A stretch of 36,538 nucleotides of DNA from the IMG/VR virus record IMGVR_UViG_2654587996_000001, positions 1-36,538 of that record; one strand, written 5' to 3'. Under the pieces are notes generated by a model. The model saw nothing but the letters and a program-made list of their open reading frames with translations, made no database searches and was not told the origin of the DNA. A program made the translations under genes and the position numbers. The stretch is from a virus (Duplodnaviria > Heunggongvirae > Uroviricota > Caudoviricetes). Below, piece by piece: positions 17,388 to 23,197 of this stretch; position 1 is the stretch's first letter, and every line of letters begins with the position of its first letter.

Positions 17388-17430
17388 ATTTGCCCTCCGC
17401 AGGGGCCGGGCCGTAAGCCCGGCTCACCGT

Positions 17431-18378
17431 TTACAGATAATCCGCGACAACCAGTTCCAGCTTGCCTTTCATCTCGTTGGAGACGGTGGTGTTACCGTCC
17501 GCGAACAGCTCGCGCTCCAGCAGCTGCACCGCCTGTTTTTCCAGCGAGGTGGGGACAACAATATGGGTGGGTCTGATGCCGAGTTTGCGGCCACCGTCAG
17601 CCTTAAAGTCACGCATGGCTGACCAGCCGTGCCACAGCGCATCCAGCGTCAGCGGTGACTGCATCATGTAGGCCATCTGCCAGAAGCCGTAGCCCACATT
17701 GCGACGGGCGGAAGCACCGAACACAAACTCGTTATCAGTAAACGCACGGCCTTCATCGACTTTTGTCTGGGCAACCAGTTCGGCCTTGCGGCGATCCTGA
17801 TAAATCAGCGGTTTTACCGCGCGGGAGCAGTCAAGCAGATACCAGGCCGGGCCGCTGTAATCCGCCTGTGCACCGACAGAGCCGGTTTTTGCCACAAACA
17901 TGTTGCTGACCAGCTCCACATCACCGGTACCATCCACATTTGGGTAGACGGGGTGTTCGGTATCAAAGAAGTTCTGGCCGTCATAGCAGGCTGCATTGAT
18001 CCCGTCACGCAGTGCAGCAAAGACCAGTTCATCCGGTTGTGCCGCCGCAGCGCGTCCCATCTCCTGGAACAACGGGGAGTAGATGCCGAGATTGTCGTCT
18101 TCAAAGTCATCGCGGCTGATGGCAACGGTGCCTTCAAAGGTTTTGTTCACGATGGCGTAGCCATAGGCTTTCATCTTCTCGATGACGCGGGAGCCGATCC
18201 ACTCACGGAACTGCGGGAACTGCCCCAGCCAGCCGTAGGTGTTGGATTTCGACGTGGACGGCACGGTCATCGCAATTTTCTGGTACTGCGACGGGGCCAT
18301 GGACATCCCGGCCTGAAAATCAGAACGGTAGCCCGTCATCAGGGCGGTGATCATCGCCGGTGTAATCGGGGTAGGCAT
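17431..18378 (-). CDS. Major head (capsid) subunit, Mu T-like
   Basis: 315 aa, downstream of the protease/scaffold gene; a GC-rich hairpin at 17404-17422 follows its stop. Confidence 0.75.
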   Translation of the reverse strand: MPTPITPAMITALMTGYRSDFQAGMSMAPSQYQKIAMTVPSTSKSNTYGWLGQFPQFREWIGSRVIEKMKAYGYAIVNKTFEGTVAISRDDFEDDNLGIYSPLFQEMGRAAAAQPDELVFAALRDGINAACYDGQNFFDTEHPVYPNVDGTGDVELVSNMFVAKTGSVGAQADYSGPAWYLLDCSRAVKPLIYQDRRKAELVAQTKVDEGRAFTDNEFVFGASARRNVGYGFWQMAYMMQSPLTLDALWHGWSAMRDFKADGGRKLGIRPTHIVVPTSLEKQAVQLLERELFADGNTTVSNEMKGKLELVVADYL

Positions 18379-19511
18379 TATTGCATTTCCTCTTTCATTT
18401 TCAGGAACTCGGCTTCGGTTTTACCCAGCAGATGGGCGGCGGCGATATCTTCAGCCGACAGCACAGCGGTGGCGGTCTTTTTATCCGGCACGGTCACGGT
18501 GTCAGTCTGAAGGCCGGTCAGGGCCGCAACCGGCTGACGGGCGTCAAGCTGAGCTGAGAGAGCCGCCACGCCAATCTGCTGGCCGAGTCCTTCCATATAT
18601 CCACGTTCGCTTTTGAAGATGCGCCCTTCGGATTCGGCCTTGTCCAGCAGCTGCTCCAGCGTGGTGCTGCCATGCTGTGCCGACAGCGCGACATATTCGG
18701 TACGCAGGGCGTTATACGTCTCAACGGGCACATATTTCGTCAGATCGATAGTGCCGCCAGCCGGTGTGCCTTTTGCGGTTTCCAGCTCTGCCGACAGGCT
18801 GGCAACCTGCGTTTTCAGGGTGTCGTGCGCATCCGCACGGTTTTTGATCCCGGTAAGGGCAGACAGCGCCGCCGTGCCCAGTTCCGGTGTAAATTCGTCA
18901 CCGTCAGCCACGGTCAGACCGAGCGCCGTCAGCAACTGGCGTAATTGCTCATTCATGGGGGATTGCTCCTGAGAAGGGGAAACGACATAGAGATCGTCAG
19001 CACTGAGTGCCGCGACAGGGTTCATACCCGTAATACCCGGATCATTCGTCAGGGAAGCCATGCGCAAAAGGTAGGGTTCCCCGGTGTCAGCGAAATAATG
19101 CATATATGCAGACAGATAGGCATATTCACGGTCATCAATATGTTTTTGTGCCTGTGGCGTCCATTCAGGTTTAATGAAAATCCCCTGACCCTCACGCCAT
19201 TCGATGTTTTCCGGCTTAACCCATCCTGCGGCAATAGCCTTGAATCCGTTTTTCTTCGCATTCACGGAGTGGTGGTCATAATCAATCAGTAACGGCTGAT
19301 GCAGGGCGAAAAGCCCGGCTTTCATCCGGTTACAGGCGGATTCGTTAATCAGCCAGCCTTCAGCCGGTTTTTCCGGGCGACCGTCACGGGCCTTTACCCT
19401 GCCTGCTGGCAGTAACTGACACCATCCGTCGCCGGATGCAGTCAGCGAAGCTGAAAGCACGGCTAAACCGGAGGGGCGATTTGCGTCTTTTGGGGGATTT
19501 TCTGTCTTCAT
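18378..19511 (-). CDS. Head protease / scaffold protein, Mu I-like
   Basis: 377 aa, syntenic position upstream of the major head gene. Confidence 0.65.
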   Translation of the reverse strand: MKTENPPKDANRPSGLAVLSASLTASGDGWCQLLPAGRVKARDGRPEKPAEGWLINESACNRMKAGLFALHQPLLIDYDHHSVNAKKNGFKAIAAGWVKPENIEWREGQGIFIKPEWTPQAQKHIDDREYAYLSAYMHYFADTGEPYLLRMASLTNDPGITGMNPVAALSADDLYVVSPSQEQSPMNEQLRQLLTALGLTVADGDEFTPELGTAALSALTGIKNRADAHDTLKTQVASLSAELETAKGTPAGGTIDLTKYVPVETYNALRTEYVALSAQHGSTTLEQLLDKAESEGRIFKSERGYMEGLGQQIGVAALSAQLDARQPVAALTGLQTDTVTVPDKKTATAVLSAEDIAAAHLLGKTEAEFLKMKEEMQ

Positions 19512-19573
19512 ACCGGCAGCATAAGCCGGGTATTTTTGGGGCTGGTTTTGCGGGACTTCAGAAAGTGCTGACA

Positions 19574-19582
19574 GGGGGGGGG
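19574..19582. repeat. Homopolymeric G9 tract (C9 on the coding strand) in the G-I intergenic region
   Basis: Read directly; about 65 nt upstream of the gene I start. Confidence 0.9.
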
Positions 19583-19688
19583 TGAGAAAGGCGCTTCACG
19601 CAGATTTTAAAGCCCGTTAAATACAGGTTAGAAAATCACGACACGCGCCTGAAGGGGGTAAGGTAATACGTTTGCATACCTTAAACCA

Positions 19689-20162
19689 TTACGGCGTTTC
19701 TGTGGCCTTTTTAAAGCGTTTTCTGATTTCGTCCATGATCTCCTGTTCTGCCACCTGATCAAAGCCCATATACGGACGTGCGCCAATGGCCGCCGGTCCC
19801 GGTGGCATACCGGGCAGGCCACCCCACTGATGAATGGCCGCATAAGGCTCATTTGACCCAATCAGCGCCCAGGTGTCGCCATAATCCGTGGTCAGGCGTC
19901 GGGCCAGATCGCCGTTCAGCGTCAGGATTTTGCCGGGCGTGTATCCCTTACGGGTACGCCACTTGCGGTAAGGATCTGACCAGTCATGCCAGCGTTCGCC
20001 GTCCGGCTCTTTTTCCTGTTCAAACGCCATTTCTGACGATGACAACAGGCTGGACGCCACACTGCGGGCCAGGTCTTTTCCGCTGCCCACAAACTGAAGC
20101 CGGGCAAAGACCCGCTGGAGACGCGTAACGTCCACCACGACAGCTGCATCAATGGATGACAT
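19689..20162 (-). CDS. Virion morphogenesis protein, Mu G-like
   Basis: 157 aa, position between F-like and I-like genes. Confidence 0.6.
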   Translation of the reverse strand: MSSIDAAVVVDVTRLQRVFARLQFVGSGKDLARSVASSLLSSSEMAFEQEKEPDGERWHDWSDPYRKWRTRKGYTPGKILTLNGDLARRLTTDYGDTWALIGSNEPYAAIHQWGGLPGMPPGPAAIGARPYMGFDQVAEQEIMDEIRKRFKKATETP

Positions 20163-20203
20163 ATTGCCTCCGCATAAAGGATGAATATAAAATAAACAGG
20201 CGG

Positions 20204-20283
20204 TCAGTGTACGCTTAACTGGTAAAGTCGGTGCCTGCCTCCGGGTGGATCATGTATGCGGGTTCGACCCCCGCCACTGACCG
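20204..20283 (+). other. tRNA-like element: canonical T-arm plus a 7-bp acceptor-like helix; no complete cloverleaf
   Basis: GCGGG-TTCGACC-CCCGC at 20259-20275 matches the tRNA T-stem and T-loop pattern; GTCAGTG (20204-20210) pairs with CACTGAC (20276-20282). D arm and anticodon arm could not be folded by hand. Confidence 0.3.
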
Positions 20284-21615
20284 TTAATCAATTTGTCCTT
20301 CCAGCACCTCAAGCATTCCGCCCCGGATATCCGATTTCAGCTTATCCATATTGATAACCCGGTAAGCATTCACAATCACATCCAGTTTGTCGGGCTGACG
20401 TTTCAGACTGTACGGTGCATTAACGGCAATCTGCACACTGCCATCCTGGTTTTCCACGATATACATCAGATTGTTGTGCCGTTTGTCCCACAGTACCGCT
20501 TTTGGCTTTGCCAGCATTGCCGGTAAGCGCCCGAAATCCTCCGGCGTCAGGGCGATGCCGTCATTCTGATGCTTCACGCTGTCCGCATGGAGCACATTTT
20601 TACCGCTCATCGCCAGCAGGCGGGCCGGAGGTGTTCCCGTCCGGCTTTCCACCGCCTGCGCAATACTTTCGGTCATAAAGCCCAGCGTACGGATATCGTG
20701 ACCACCGCGCCGGGTCTTCATGATATTTTTTGCCCAGATGCGGAACGCCAGCTGCCGCTCCGGGCTGTTATTCATCTCCTGAACCACCATTTCCCGCAGC
20801 GCCGGACTTTTCACTTCGATCAGTTTGCGGATCAGCGCCTGGTCTGTGCCGAACGCCGCCGAGCCGGGGTTATATGACCAGCCCACATCCGGTGTCATGG
20901 TTCGCGTGCCATCTGAATATGTGGTCACCGGCATTTCTCTGACTTCTCCGGTCTGTTTATCCACGCCAGCCTCAACATTGCGGGTGGAGAGATGATCCTG
21001 ACCGGATGAAACAGACAGCCCCATCGTATCCAGGCGGACCTGAGACAATGGCCGGACACGGCAGCGGCAGTTCCAGCCATTGGGCGGGTAGTGTGTATTC
21101 CAGAACGGATCGTCATAGCGGAATACCAGCCCGTTAAGGGCTGAATGCGCCGGGCGGGTGCGGCTGTCCATCACCGCCACATACTGCCAGAACGGATGCG
21201 TGTCCGTGTTGTTCATCATCTGCGTGTAACGCCCGGCATTGTAAGCCACGCGGGTGTTCACGTTGTAAATCAGCGCCAGACGGCGGGGACTGCCCAGCTG
21301 CACTTCTTCCGCGTTACCGGCGCTGTCCACCACAATCTGCTTTCCCCACCATCCCAGCTTTTGCAGGCGGGGTGTCAGCGTGCGGATAAATTCTTTCTGT
21401 GAAATTCCCTCATCAATGGCACGCTGCACTTCGGCCTGTAACGTGGTCAGCACGTCCAGGCGTGCCGCTTTTGCGGCCGTGAATGAGCGGGCATGAACAT
21501 CCGCGTTTGTTTCGAACCAGTTCCAGCTGATATGCGCCCCTTTGGCGCGAAAGTATGCCACCGCCTCTTTTGAGGGAAGCGTGGCGGCATAACCTAAATC
21601 AATCCCCTGTGTCAT
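20284..21615 (-). CDS. Head morphogenesis protein, Mu F-like
   Basis: 443 aa directly downstream of the portal gene. Confidence 0.65.
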   Translation of the reverse strand: MTQGIDLGYAATLPSKEAVAYFRAKGAHISWNWFETNADVHARSFTAAKAARLDVLTTLQAEVQRAIDEGISQKEFIRTLTPRLQKLGWWGKQIVVDSAGNAEEVQLGSPRRLALIYNVNTRVAYNAGRYTQMMNNTDTHPFWQYVAVMDSRTRPAHSALNGLVFRYDDPFWNTHYPPNGWNCRCRVRPLSQVRLDTMGLSVSSGQDHLSTRNVEAGVDKQTGEVREMPVTTYSDGTRTMTPDVGWSYNPGSAAFGTDQALIRKLIEVKSPALREMVVQEMNNSPERQLAFRIWAKNIMKTRRGGHDIRTLGFMTESIAQAVESRTGTPPARLLAMSGKNVLHADSVKHQNDGIALTPEDFGRLPAMLAKPKAVLWDKRHNNLMYIVENQDGSVQIAVNAPYSLKRQPDKLDVIVNAYRVINMDKLKSDIRGGMLEVLEGQID

Positions 21616-23197
21616 CCAGCATCCCTTTCATTTCCGCAGCAAACATCGCATCACTGAGCAGCGTCATCAGGCGGGAATCATCCATTTCACGGTAAAGGGC
21701 GGGCAGATCTGCCAGCGCTTCCGCCAGCCCCCGCGTTCTGATGGCGTCAATGACCGGCTCCAGCACCGGGTCGATAGCCTCCTGTAACCGGCGGGCAGGC
21801 ACCGCATCGCCCATGTCGTCCAGCTCATCACGGGGGCTGCTTTTCGCTTCCGGCAGTCTGGCGGCCAGCGCCGTCTGTTCTGTCTTTTCCTGTTTTTCCT
21901 GCGGCGTTTCCCTGTCAGTCTGAGCCGGCTCATTTCCACTCTGACGGACACGGAAGATGGCTTCACCGGGCGTGAGCTGCGGAATACCGGTCTGCTCCCG
22001 TATCCAGGGATCAGAAATATCCATCCCTGTACTGAGCTGCATCACAGCACTGGTGATTTTGGTGATGTCACCCGGCTCTTTTGTCTGGAAACAGATACGC
22101 GGCAGGCGACGGATATCAATGGCGTGGGTGGTGTTCAGGGCGTACAGCGGATACACCAGATCGCGGTTCAGCGTGGCCGCCAGCTGGCGTAAATCAGAAT
22201 TTCTGATTTCCCGGCGCACCTCGTTATGCACCTCACCCAGCGAGCGCGCACCTTTGTCTCCGGCTTCCGTGGTCAGCGTGCCGCCGAGAATTGCTTTGGA
22301 GATGGAACGCTCTCCCCACGAAATCATGGTTTCAAACGGATCGGCCTGACCGTTCGCTGCCGCCTGAAACTCCAGCGACATCCCGGCCGGGATGATCCCG
22401 CCTGTACGTCGCCCGATATCCATTACCGCCCGCATCAGGGCGCTTTTCTGCTCCGGTGTTGCCCCGGACGGGTATTTCCCGACCTTCATCGGCAGGCCGT
22501 ACACCTCCAGAAATTCCGCCAGATCGCGCACGGAATAGTTTTTGAAAATGAACGGCCAGATAAGCGTCCTGACAAGCCCGGTTGCGCCGCCATAACCGGT
22601 CCGTGAACGAGACTGATGCACTATCCAGCCAAAGGGCTGAAACGCCACCCCGGCATGGCTGCCGTCACGCAGTCGCAGCTCGCTCAAATCATCCGGGTTA
22701 AGGCAGAAATGCCCGCTGTCACGCCATCGGATGGCGCGGATGATGTGCATCTTACCGAGCATCCCGTGCTCAATCTCCATGCAGGAATAGCCCTTCAGGA
22801 TGGCATCGGTGGCATCAAACAGCATGGCATCAAACCAGTCGGCGGAATGCAGATACTCGTCGAGCATTTCCGCGTCCTTCTTCTCATTCGCGCTGGCGTT
22901 CGGCGGCGGCTCAATGCTCCATGGCACGCCCTGAATGGCAAGGCGTCGCTTGCCCAGCTCCGCAAAAAGGTGGGTGTCCTTTTCTTCAATATCAGCCGCC
23001 AGATCGGACTGGGCAATCAGATCGCCACGTTCAGCCCCGCGAAGGCATTGTGCCGCCCGGTTCGGGGTGATACCCGAGGCCGGATGTTCAATATAACGGC
23101 TGGCAATCTGCGGAATATCCAGCGCGGCACTCTGCATCTCCGGGTCAAAGGAGAAAGGTTTTCCGTCAGTATCAATGATGCGTCCCACTACCAGCAC
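21599..23197 (-). CDS. Portal protein (Mu gp29/H-like)
   Basis: 532 aa downstream of the large terminase, overlapping start. Confidence 0.7.
   Translation of the reverse strand: MLVVGRIIDTDGKPFSFDPEMQSAALDIPQIASRYIEHPASGITPNRAAQCLRGAERGDLIAQSDLAADIEEKDTHLFAELGKRRLAIQGVPWSIEPPPNASANEKKDAEMLDEYLHSADWFDAMLFDATDAILKGYSCMEIEHGMLGKMHIIRAIRWRDSGHFCLNPDDLSELRLRDGSHAGVAFQPFGWIVHQSRSRTGYGGATGLVRTLIWPFIFKNYSVRDLAEFLEVYGLPMKVGKYPSGATPEQKSALMRAVMDIGRRTGGIIPAGMSLEFQAAANGQADPFETMISWGERSISKAILGGTLTTEAGDKGARSLGEVHNEVRREIRNSDLRQLAATLNRDLVYPLYALNTTHAIDIRRLPRICFQTKEPGDITKITSAVMQLSTGMDISDPWIREQTGIPQLTPGEAIFRVRQSGNEPAQTDRETPQEKQEKTEQTALAARLPEAKSSPRDELDDMGDAVPARRLQEAIDPVLEPVIDAIRTRGLAEALADLPALYREMDDSRLMTLLSDAMFAAEMKGMLDDTGD

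Follow-up and report, generated by a model that had tools for sequence, protein, structure and literature searches.

Between the head genes F and G, many Mu-like transposable phages carry what is very probably a small RNA gene that encodes a complete transfer RNA (tRNA) body without a decoding loop. We describe it in a 36,538-nucleotide (nt) stretch of tailed-phage DNA, IMG/VR record IMGVR_UViG_2654587996_000001 (hereafter the window), where it lies on the plus strand at 20201–20283. Its sequence points with high confidence to a genuine gene that is accessory to the phages and equipped with its own predicted promoter. The signal in a single sequence is only modest; comparison with homologues lifts the element far above chance.

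Anatomy of the tRNA-shaped RNA

The RNA scores 31.0 bits against the Rfam tRNA model (RF00005) and 91.3 bits against R1, a covariance model of the family. Its ends form a perfect 9-nt inverted repeat, CGGTCAGTG (20201–20209) with CACTGACCG (20275–20283), which supplies a 9-base-pair (bp) acceptor helix. The 5' strand holds positions −2 and −1 plus 1–7 (CG+GTCAGTG), and the 3' strand (CACTGAC+CG) abuts the F stop codon (TTA on this strand, 20284–20286). The 7-bp acceptor core, GTCAGTG/CACTGAC, adjoins the T stem, and two further pairs extend the helix outward; the discriminator position is thus base-paired, and CCA is not encoded. U8, A9 and one extra C, an insert in the Rfam alignment, join the acceptor and D stems (20210–20212), and the C shifts the D arm by one position relative to canonical tRNA. 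That arm occupies 20213–20228 in the Rfam alignment, with stem GCTT (20213–20216) and AAGT (20225–20228), an outer G·U pair and the loop AACTGGTA (as RNA, AACUGGUA), which holds A14, A15, G18, G19 and A21.

In place of the anticodon stem-loop, folding predicts a helix of about 8 bp (20230–20251) capped by the 4-nt loop TCCG (20240–20243), with neither a 7-nt loop nor U33. The linker ATGTAT (20252–20257) is the equivalent of the variable loop and ends in U48, the presumed Levitt partner of A15. The T arm follows at 20258–20274, with stem GCGGG/CCCGC and loop TTCGACC (T54, T55, C56, R57, A58). The canonical elbow and core contacts are all represented: U8-A14, A15-U48, G18/G19 with T55/C56, and T54-A58.

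An earlier sequence-only reading of this stretch had recognized part of the structure. It had found the T arm GCGGG-TTCGACC-CCCGC on the plus strand, which is where the arm lies, at 20258–20274. The 7-bp helix with which it closed the element is real, and its coordinates were right to 1–3 nt, but the helix is longer, those seven pairs being the inner part of the perfect 9-nt repeat. That reading could fold no D arm by hand; a canonical one, GCTT/AAGT, is present at an offset of one C and emerges from both the Rfam alignment and covariation. It could not fold an anticodon arm either; an equivalent of the arm exists as a helix, closed by a short loop and lacking an anticodon loop. Its overall description, a structured RNA that is tRNA-like yet not a standard tRNA, agrees with the covariance-model hit (Rfam tRNA, 31.0 bits), with covariation and with the absence of an ARAGORN call. 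The conservation in related phages that it considered was also found, the helices being kept in the same slot down to about 40% G-protein identity.

Covariation and core conservation

Members of the family were gathered by pattern scans of viral contigs, a scan of species-representative genomes, protein-guided retrieval of F–G junctions and model R1. In a first alignment of 16 hand-collected variants, made with plain MAFFT, 94.1% of cells pair, against 38–56% when the partners are slid, and 8 pairs change on both sides. A second set of 32 variants was aligned to R1 and so leans towards the model; here 95.6% of cells pair, against 33–51% when slid, and 15 of 18 pairs change on both sides. This set contains 123 compensatory cells and yields a covariation score of 0.616, compared with 0.215 in shuffles, none of 500 of which reached the observed value. 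RNAalifold independently recovers the acceptor and T helices. It also offers an alternative pairing of the D region (U8-A21, A9-U20, C-G19), which we rejected: those columns barely vary, and it is the tRNA-type D stem that covaries.

Covariation extends to every helix of the tRNA body. Among the 32 homologues, 97.1% of acceptor cells pair and 8 of the 9 acceptor pairs change on both sides. This covariation spans nine pairs rather than seven, compensatory changes keeping positions 73 and 74 paired with −1 and −2; CCA is encoded nowhere in the family. D-stem pairs exchange CG for AU and UA for AU, and T-stem pairs exchange CG for UA and GC for AU, with 99.4% of T-stem cells paired.

The single-stranded core is equally constrained. 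U8, G18, T54-T55-C56 and R57 are present in 32/32 homologues; A14, A15, G19, A21 and A58 each in 31/32, as is the extra C; position 48 is U in 30/32; and A9 occurs in 29/32. Near-invariance at positions that make tertiary contacts characterizes an L-shaped tRNA body whose elbow is intact, which is the shape predicted here.

The same alignments identify the functional strand. Read on the plus strand, the 32 variants contain 36 G·U wobble pairs against 3 A·C mismatches, and the smaller set 19 against 1. This asymmetry identifies plus as the functional strand, the only one on which the T-loop and D-loop consensus reads correctly.

The missing anticodon

All 32 homologues have a helix of 5–12 bp between the D and T arms, closed by a loop of 3–14 nt. 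The replacement arm often consists of a proximal stem of 4–5 bp, a small internal loop and a GC-rich distal stem. UUCG closes it in five members, and TCCG, TCAG, GTAC, AGA, CAT and others occur as well. None of the 32 has a 7-nt loop with U33, so the RNA cannot decode. UUCG and similar loops serve to cap a helix, evidence for reading the arm as a stub and not as a payload.

Predicted transcription unit

A promoter scan found TTGCCT-18-TAAAAT (9/12 matches) just upstream of the RNA on the plus strand. The −35-like hexamer TTGCCT (20164–20169) is conserved in related variants. The −10 hexamer TAAAAT (20188–20193) ends 7 nt before the extended stem and is invariant in 4 variants, though the adjoining spacer is only 33–39% identical. 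Across the family, 25/49 distinct members have a match of at least 9/12 whose −10 ends 3–12 nt before the stem, compared with 8 of 3000 random anchors (0.3%) at the same loci. Examples are TTGAAC-17-TATAAT, TTGAAC-17-TATACT and TTGCAT-16-TAAAAT. We hold it highly probable, as part of the case for the RNA gene, that the element has its own sigma-70 promoter, with a predicted start at the base of the extended stem. At the other end, two different canonical intrinsic terminators directly follow the element on the same strand in 8/49 members from two clades; elsewhere the tRNA-like 3' end could instead arise by processing.

The promoter region overlaps signals of the late operon. The antisense −35 overlaps the Shine-Dalgarno sequence and start codon of G on the opposite strand (20160–20171; GGAGGCAATATG), and RNA polymerase at the −35 could interfere with late transcription or translation of G, and the reverse. 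Separately, a 13-nt inverted repeat with 85% complementarity, CCGCATAAAGGAT (20170–20182) with ATCATGTATGCGG (20249–20261), has one arm in the promoter spacer, next to the G ribosome-binding site, and the other in the linker and 5' T stem. Because its left arm lies upstream of the predicted start, this repeat could be relevant only in the minus-strand late mRNA.

Detection by annotation tools

General tools see the element at the edge of their sensitivity. The Rfam tRNA hit came from a 251-nt scan with permissive filters and exceeds the gathering score of 29 by a little; its alignment passes over the anticodon-arm region as an unaligned local insert, 24 nt where the model has 18. A scan of the whole window at gathering thresholds gave no hits, and at the locus itself tRNA was the sole Rfam family with an E-value below 4. 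ARAGORN, which searches for tRNA and transfer-messenger RNA (tmRNA), called no gene in the window or in 5 related loci, and two homologues (L088 and L039; L numbers denote our loci) had no RF00005 hit at E<0.1. The T-arm motif GGGTTCGANCCC is weak evidence of its own, occurring once per strand in the window where 0.73 is expected by chance, a count equalled by 20 of 100 shuffles.

Existing annotation is correspondingly uneven. The same DNA is present in 230 records (229 of 5,426 complete E. coli genomes), where the Prokaryotic Genome Annotation Pipeline (PGAP) labels the locus tRNA-OTHER on the strand opposite F and G. The PGAP feature in an identical copy and the Rfam hit both correspond to 20203–20282 on the plus strand. 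PGAP gives no label to many E. coli copies, chiefly from O157:H7, with 98.0% identity to the 151-nt query, among them L007 (558–616), whose RNA differs by one T-loop base, G57A (TTCAACC for TTCGACC; still R57). The call sits right at the PGAP threshold, and labels in the family are unstable: tRNA-OTHER, tRNA-Tyr or none. Model R1 could give the family uniform annotation.

Distribution of the cassette

More than 50 distinct homologues extend from E. coli to Shewanella; an exact-pattern scan of one genome per species matched Shewanella cutis alone. Wherever we examined a Mu-like phage that has the element, it stood in the F–G interval, on the strand opposite both genes. This placement in the F–G gap is kept down to F and G identities of about 40–45%, and in Shewanella. 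It is also found in phages whose F is 67–73% identical to that of Mu itself (L149, L159, L165 and L167). The F–G gap of carriers measures 88–129 nt; their nearest relatives that lack the element have −16 to +14 nt between the two genes. In phage Mu, F and G overlap (17389–17392), leaving no gap and no element, and in Mu, D108 and SfMu the match is confined to F and G, as two separate pieces; in Yersinia Mu-like phages, too, it is confined to the coding parts. Together with the reading as an RNA gene, we are therefore confident that a large subset of Mu-like phages carries the element as an accessory cassette, inserted at the F–G boundary.

We found no likely source for it. Among 50,697 phage records, a search for a donor tRNA returned only a generic 25-nt T-arm match. 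Our literature search turned up no account of a conserved tRNA mimic of transposable phages that lacks an anticodon and has its own promoter; PMC13502914 and a preprint on Pas small RNA mention Sp18 or tRNA-like sequences, yet concern other loci.

Individual phages vary what occupies the gap. In L094 (2124–2437, minus strand), three tandem tRNA-like genes fill a 343-nt F–G gap. Two of them have promoters of their own (TTGTTA-17-TATAAT/TATGAT), and the second scores best in Rfam as tRNA-Sec, at 33 bits and below threshold. L136 (2345–2490) holds a diverged true member that R1 misses, with acceptor GGCGTGG/CCACGCC and T arm CCGG-TTCGATT-CCGG. More distant, GC-rich Mu-like phages (L102, 2275–2410, and also L103 and L104) fill this slot, in the same orientation, with another structured insert. 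A 9-bp stem, GGACGAGTG/CACTCGTCC, closes that insert, which has a TATACT −10 but lacks the T-loop motif.

Copies outside the F–G gap and a mosaic block

Some homologues stand apart from F and G, which argues that the RNA acts in trans. In E. coli JNEC-KY179, an ~8-kb island ends with a Mor-family activator followed by two tandem copies, and the module of Mor and tandem RNAs recurs in 15 E. coli genomes. Three viral contigs (L029 2289–8306, L015 and L163) each have a copy whose neighbours are DUF2971, a Mu-like gpT major head gene, Mor and an AAA_13 ATPase. The genome that holds the first of these (IMG 2921608179) also has a true Mu-like phage, L028, with the element in its F–G gap.

These settings have further features. 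The JNEC-KY179 island (L138 1507–9394, with its RNA copies also in L003 3193–4082) is inserted at tRNA-Ile and lacks structural genes; it encodes an integrase, Ash, an Icd-like protein, a RepA-family helicase, SSB, PerC and Mor, and GTGAAA iteron-like repeats (L003 3720–3800) precede the tandem RNA copies. It resembles a phage satellite and might exploit Mu-like helpers. The L029 module includes an open reading frame (ORF) of 184 amino acids and an AAA_13 ATPase of 786, with no F, G or portal gene nearby.

Within the window, the RNA gene belongs to a block of about 360 nt (~20170–20528) that also takes in the promoter spacer and the last ~80 codons of F (20284–20528, minus strand). Nucleotide identity to the E. 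coli prophages L004, L005 and L006 is 45–75% inside this block and mostly 87–100% in its flanks. Each type of F C-terminal tail, in the region of the MuF_C domain, travels with its RNA subtype, even between backgrounds as distant as those of the window and L024. Linkage alone could explain this, as could functional coupling between the tail and the RNA. We read the block as a recombinational mosaic, which is not by itself a sign of diversifying selection on the RNA; fast evolution of the RNA was dropped as the cause of the local divergence once the 3' end of F proved to be included.

A proposed role and its alternatives

The anatomy of the RNA suggests how it might work. Host RNA polymerase would make it independently of the Mor/C late cascade, and so probably in the lysogen too. 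The RNA would then fold into an L shape and act in trans as a mimic of the tRNA body. Selection would have kept the "top half", the acceptor–T minihelix and elbow, and dropped the decoding end. Because the part kept is the one that is read by shape, the binders we propose are shape-reading factors: RNase P, the CCA enzyme, modification enzymes, or toxins and immune nucleases that hit the tRNA at its body or acceptor end. The RNA could titrate such a factor, or divert it, to the benefit of phage or lysogen, either as decoy-type counter-defence or as a host-modulation moron. Like a moron, it sits at a gene boundary, is present in some phages and absent from close relatives, and by its sequence has its own promoter. 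Some defence toxins are known to target the acceptor end or the body of tRNA, and in Pseudomonas Mu-like phages the G–I gap holds anti-CRISPR operons (PMC3993853). The whole chain, from host transcription to a trans-acting tRNA-shape decoy, is a tentative proposal that could well fail at one of its steps. More doubtful is the broader idea that Mu-like phages and apparently parasitic islands alike carry the mimic as a trans-acting weapon or regulator, be it a decoy for immune nucleases and toxins or a competitor within the tmRNA ribosome-rescue pathway, which is known to affect Mu repression.

Several observations weigh against this account. The fold of the single sequence is of unremarkable stability, with z-scores of −1.76 on the plus strand and −1.72 on the minus strand. 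No intrinsic terminator is recognizable in the window's clade, and the promoter, both ends and expression in the lysogen are all predictions from DNA sequence. The prophage encodes no partner protein for the RNA, nearby or elsewhere. Unless it is processed, an RNA with a paired discriminator, a paired position 74 and no CCA would be a poor mimic for toxins that act on the CCA end. We know of no E. coli tRNA whose acceptor stem these acceptor stems copy. Finally, the constant antisense orientation could also reflect a role in cis.

Such a role in cis would have the RNA pair with the F–G late mRNA and bring about RNase III cleavage, silencing, or uncoupling of G and the downstream head genes, for example as a guard against leaky late transcription in lysogens. 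The unbroken orientation against F and G speaks for it, as does the overlap of the promoter −35 with the G ribosome-binding site, and the late transcript would have an obvious partner in any abundant RNA that matches it perfectly. Antisense regulation is nevertheless unlikely. Pairing needs no G18G19, T-loop, U8-A14 or A15-U48, yet all are conserved in 30–32 of 32 homologues; homologues exist where there is no F–G mRNA; and in the terminator clades the transcript would stop short of the F coding sequence. Fixed orientation is also explained by descent, or by the harm that a sense-oriented strong promoter or RNase P site would do inside the late mRNA. Alternatively, the tRNA body could be a natural scaffold that only lends stability and processing to a variable arm; specificity would then come from the arm, through binding to a protein or pairing with a target RNA. 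The arm is indeed the most variable segment, being 27–32% identical between otherwise near-identical prophages and different in every lineage, and engineered tRNA scaffolds with a replaced anticodon arm are stable in E. coli. Many arms, however, are only 5–9 bp long and end in UUCG-like inert caps, no motif is common to them, and their divergence belongs to the larger mosaic block that includes the F 3' end and may have arisen without selection on the arm. A stabilizing handle would also not need so strictly conserved a core, and we consider a scaffold improbable. Less probable again is a chargeable, non-ribosomal tRNA, which after RNase P cleavage, 3' trimming and CCA addition would be aminoacylated by an anticodon-blind synthetase and then serve as an amino-acid donor or enter the ribosome like the tRNA-like domain of tmRNA. 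In its favour, the RNA retains the acceptor–T minihelix and elbow, E. coli does mature phage tRNAs whose genes encode no CCA, and the tRNA function of SsrA is reported to influence Mu repression (Ranquet et al. 2001, cited in PMC11633108). Position 3:70 is CG in 21, UA in 8, AU in 2 and GC in 1 of 32 homologues, however, and without G3·U70 there is no identity for alanyl-tRNA synthetase or of the tmRNA type. G-1:C73 is not constant; pairing is maintained at the discriminator and position 74, a sign that the functional RNA retains this helix; and we found neither a tag reading frame nor a tmRNA-like hit beyond the generic T arm.

Strand asymmetry, covariation and loop anatomy effectively exclude three other explanations. 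The sequence-only reading had suggested an element of the F–G mRNA that serves its processing or stability; a structure in the minus-strand late mRNA could also couple translation of the two genes. The element does lie in an intercistronic gap of a polycistronic operon, its reverse complement folds too (−28.8 kcal/mol), and the 13-nt imperfect repeat ties the region of the G ribosome-binding site to the linker and T stem. This suggestion is nonetheless largely refuted and very improbable, since the wobble bias, the T- and D-loop consensus, the promoter and the terminators, where present, all belong to the plus strand, and copies exist outside any F–G mRNA. The same reading had also offered a captured tRNA fragment, and one may extend this to a functionless, decaying pseudogene. 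A marginal tRNA score (31 bits), the silence of ARAGORN and the behaviour of PGAP, which assigns no isotype and drops 98%-identical copies, would fit such a relic. Its chances are slight all the same, and short of an alignment artefact it is refuted: compensatory changes keep all helices across more than 50 variants, the promoter is conserved, the slot is retained while F and G diverge to about 40%, and no donor tRNA is detectable. What the fragment idea took for a remnant is a full-length tRNA body under purifying selection. The least credible explanation is a true decoding tRNA with an unusual anticodon loop. It can appeal to the PGAP label tRNA-Tyr on the L003 homologue and to ARAGORN, which calls the third of the three L094 copies tRNA-Lys(UUU). 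The supposed GTA anticodon of the former, however, lies within a perfect palindrome, CAGCCTGTACAGGCTG, whose loop must be of even length, and the supposed loop of the latter, CCUUUGG, has C at position 33, where U would be expected, and can close two C-G pairs, which leaves a 3-nt loop. Loop lengths of 3–14 nt across the family tell against decoding as well, and the 4-nt loop of the window copy refutes it there.

Relation to known RNAs and cassettes

Non-decoding tRNA-like RNAs are already a known kind, and PGAP already flags the locus. The module of the bacterial Y RNA YrlA and the phage T4 stable RNAs "species 1 and 2" do not decode and have T and D elements like those of tRNA; their functions are non-translational or unassigned, and some are phage-encoded. 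The YrlA module forms one part of a larger RNA that a Ro-binding helix closes, and the T4 RNAs, encoded in a tRNA cluster, have no evident sequence relation to the Mu-like RNA. The canonical tRNA (RF00005) shares with it the 7-bp acceptor core, the D arm with A14, G18G19 and A21, the TTCRA T arm, U8, Y48 and the cloverleaf; the window RNA differs in having no anticodon loop or U33, a 9-bp acceptor, a paired discriminator, no CCA and an extra C. The tRNA-like domain of tmRNA (SsrA) is similar in its acceptor–T minihelix, its elbow and its lack of an anticodon. Unlike tmRNA, the Mu-like RNA has no G3·U70, tag region, long P2 helix or pseudoknots, has a full D stem and is only 80–100 nt long; the Rfam tmRNA model gave nothing beyond a 15-bit T-arm match in one homologue.

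The tRNA-Other of Bacillus cereus reportedly keeps an anticodon loop and can be aminoacylated. It is likewise tRNA-shaped and on horizontally acquired DNA, and PMC3399842 describes it as non-functional in translation and regulatory in effect; organism and context are unrelated, and the likeness is one of description. Phage tRNAs are known in counter-defence: according to PMC11555353 and PMC13096335, T5 uses tRNA-Tyr against Retron-Eco7/Septu and tRNA variants against PARIS. Those are functional decoders that replace cleaved host tRNAs, whereas the Mu-like RNA could only be a decoy or competitor. The anti-CRISPR operons of Pseudomonas Mu-like phages (PMC3993853) match the cassette in being small, self-transcribed, accessory, inserted between head-morphogenesis genes, variable among close relatives and missing from some. 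They encode proteins and occupy the next gap, G–I; the F–G cassette encodes an RNA, with an anti-defence role that is only proposed.

That a lineage of transposable phages kept the tRNA body and shed the decoding end implies a benefit to a phage from tRNA shape by itself. The RNA would represent a new class of RNA decoy, and an ~85-nt handle with which to probe tRNA-directed immunity, should its partner prove to be an immune nuclease, toxin or tRNA-processing enzyme. A true decoy would also place an RNA-based anti-defence factor in the head-gene neighbourhood that is shared with the Pseudomonas anti-CRISPRs.

Prophage context

By its ORFs and Pfam matches, the window is a complete Mu-like prophage with its late genes on the minus strand. 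The element is housed in the 120-nt gap bounded by G, a virion morphogenesis gene (19689–20162, Phage_tail_S), and F (20284–21615, Phage_Mu_F and MuF_C). On the same strand, the portal gene (21599–23197, Portal_Mu) lies beyond F and the protease gene I (18378–19511, Mu-like_Pro) beyond G. No tRNA-handling enzyme or reverse transcriptase was found in the prophage gene content. An identical prophage in E. coli FORC_069 has the full Mu gene order, from repressor and transposase through Com/Mom.

The G–I intergenic gap (19512–19688, 177 nt) corresponds in position to the strong gyrase site of Mu, annotated between G and I in NC_000929, and is also the equivalent of the anti-CRISPR slot in Pseudomonas Mu-like phages. 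In the identical FORC_069 prophage (L139 39121–44193), a second region of accessory cargo lies between the tail-fibre invertase and Com/Mom and carries genes for a DUF6645 protein of 684 amino acids and for several small DUF proteins (DUF1378, DUF826).

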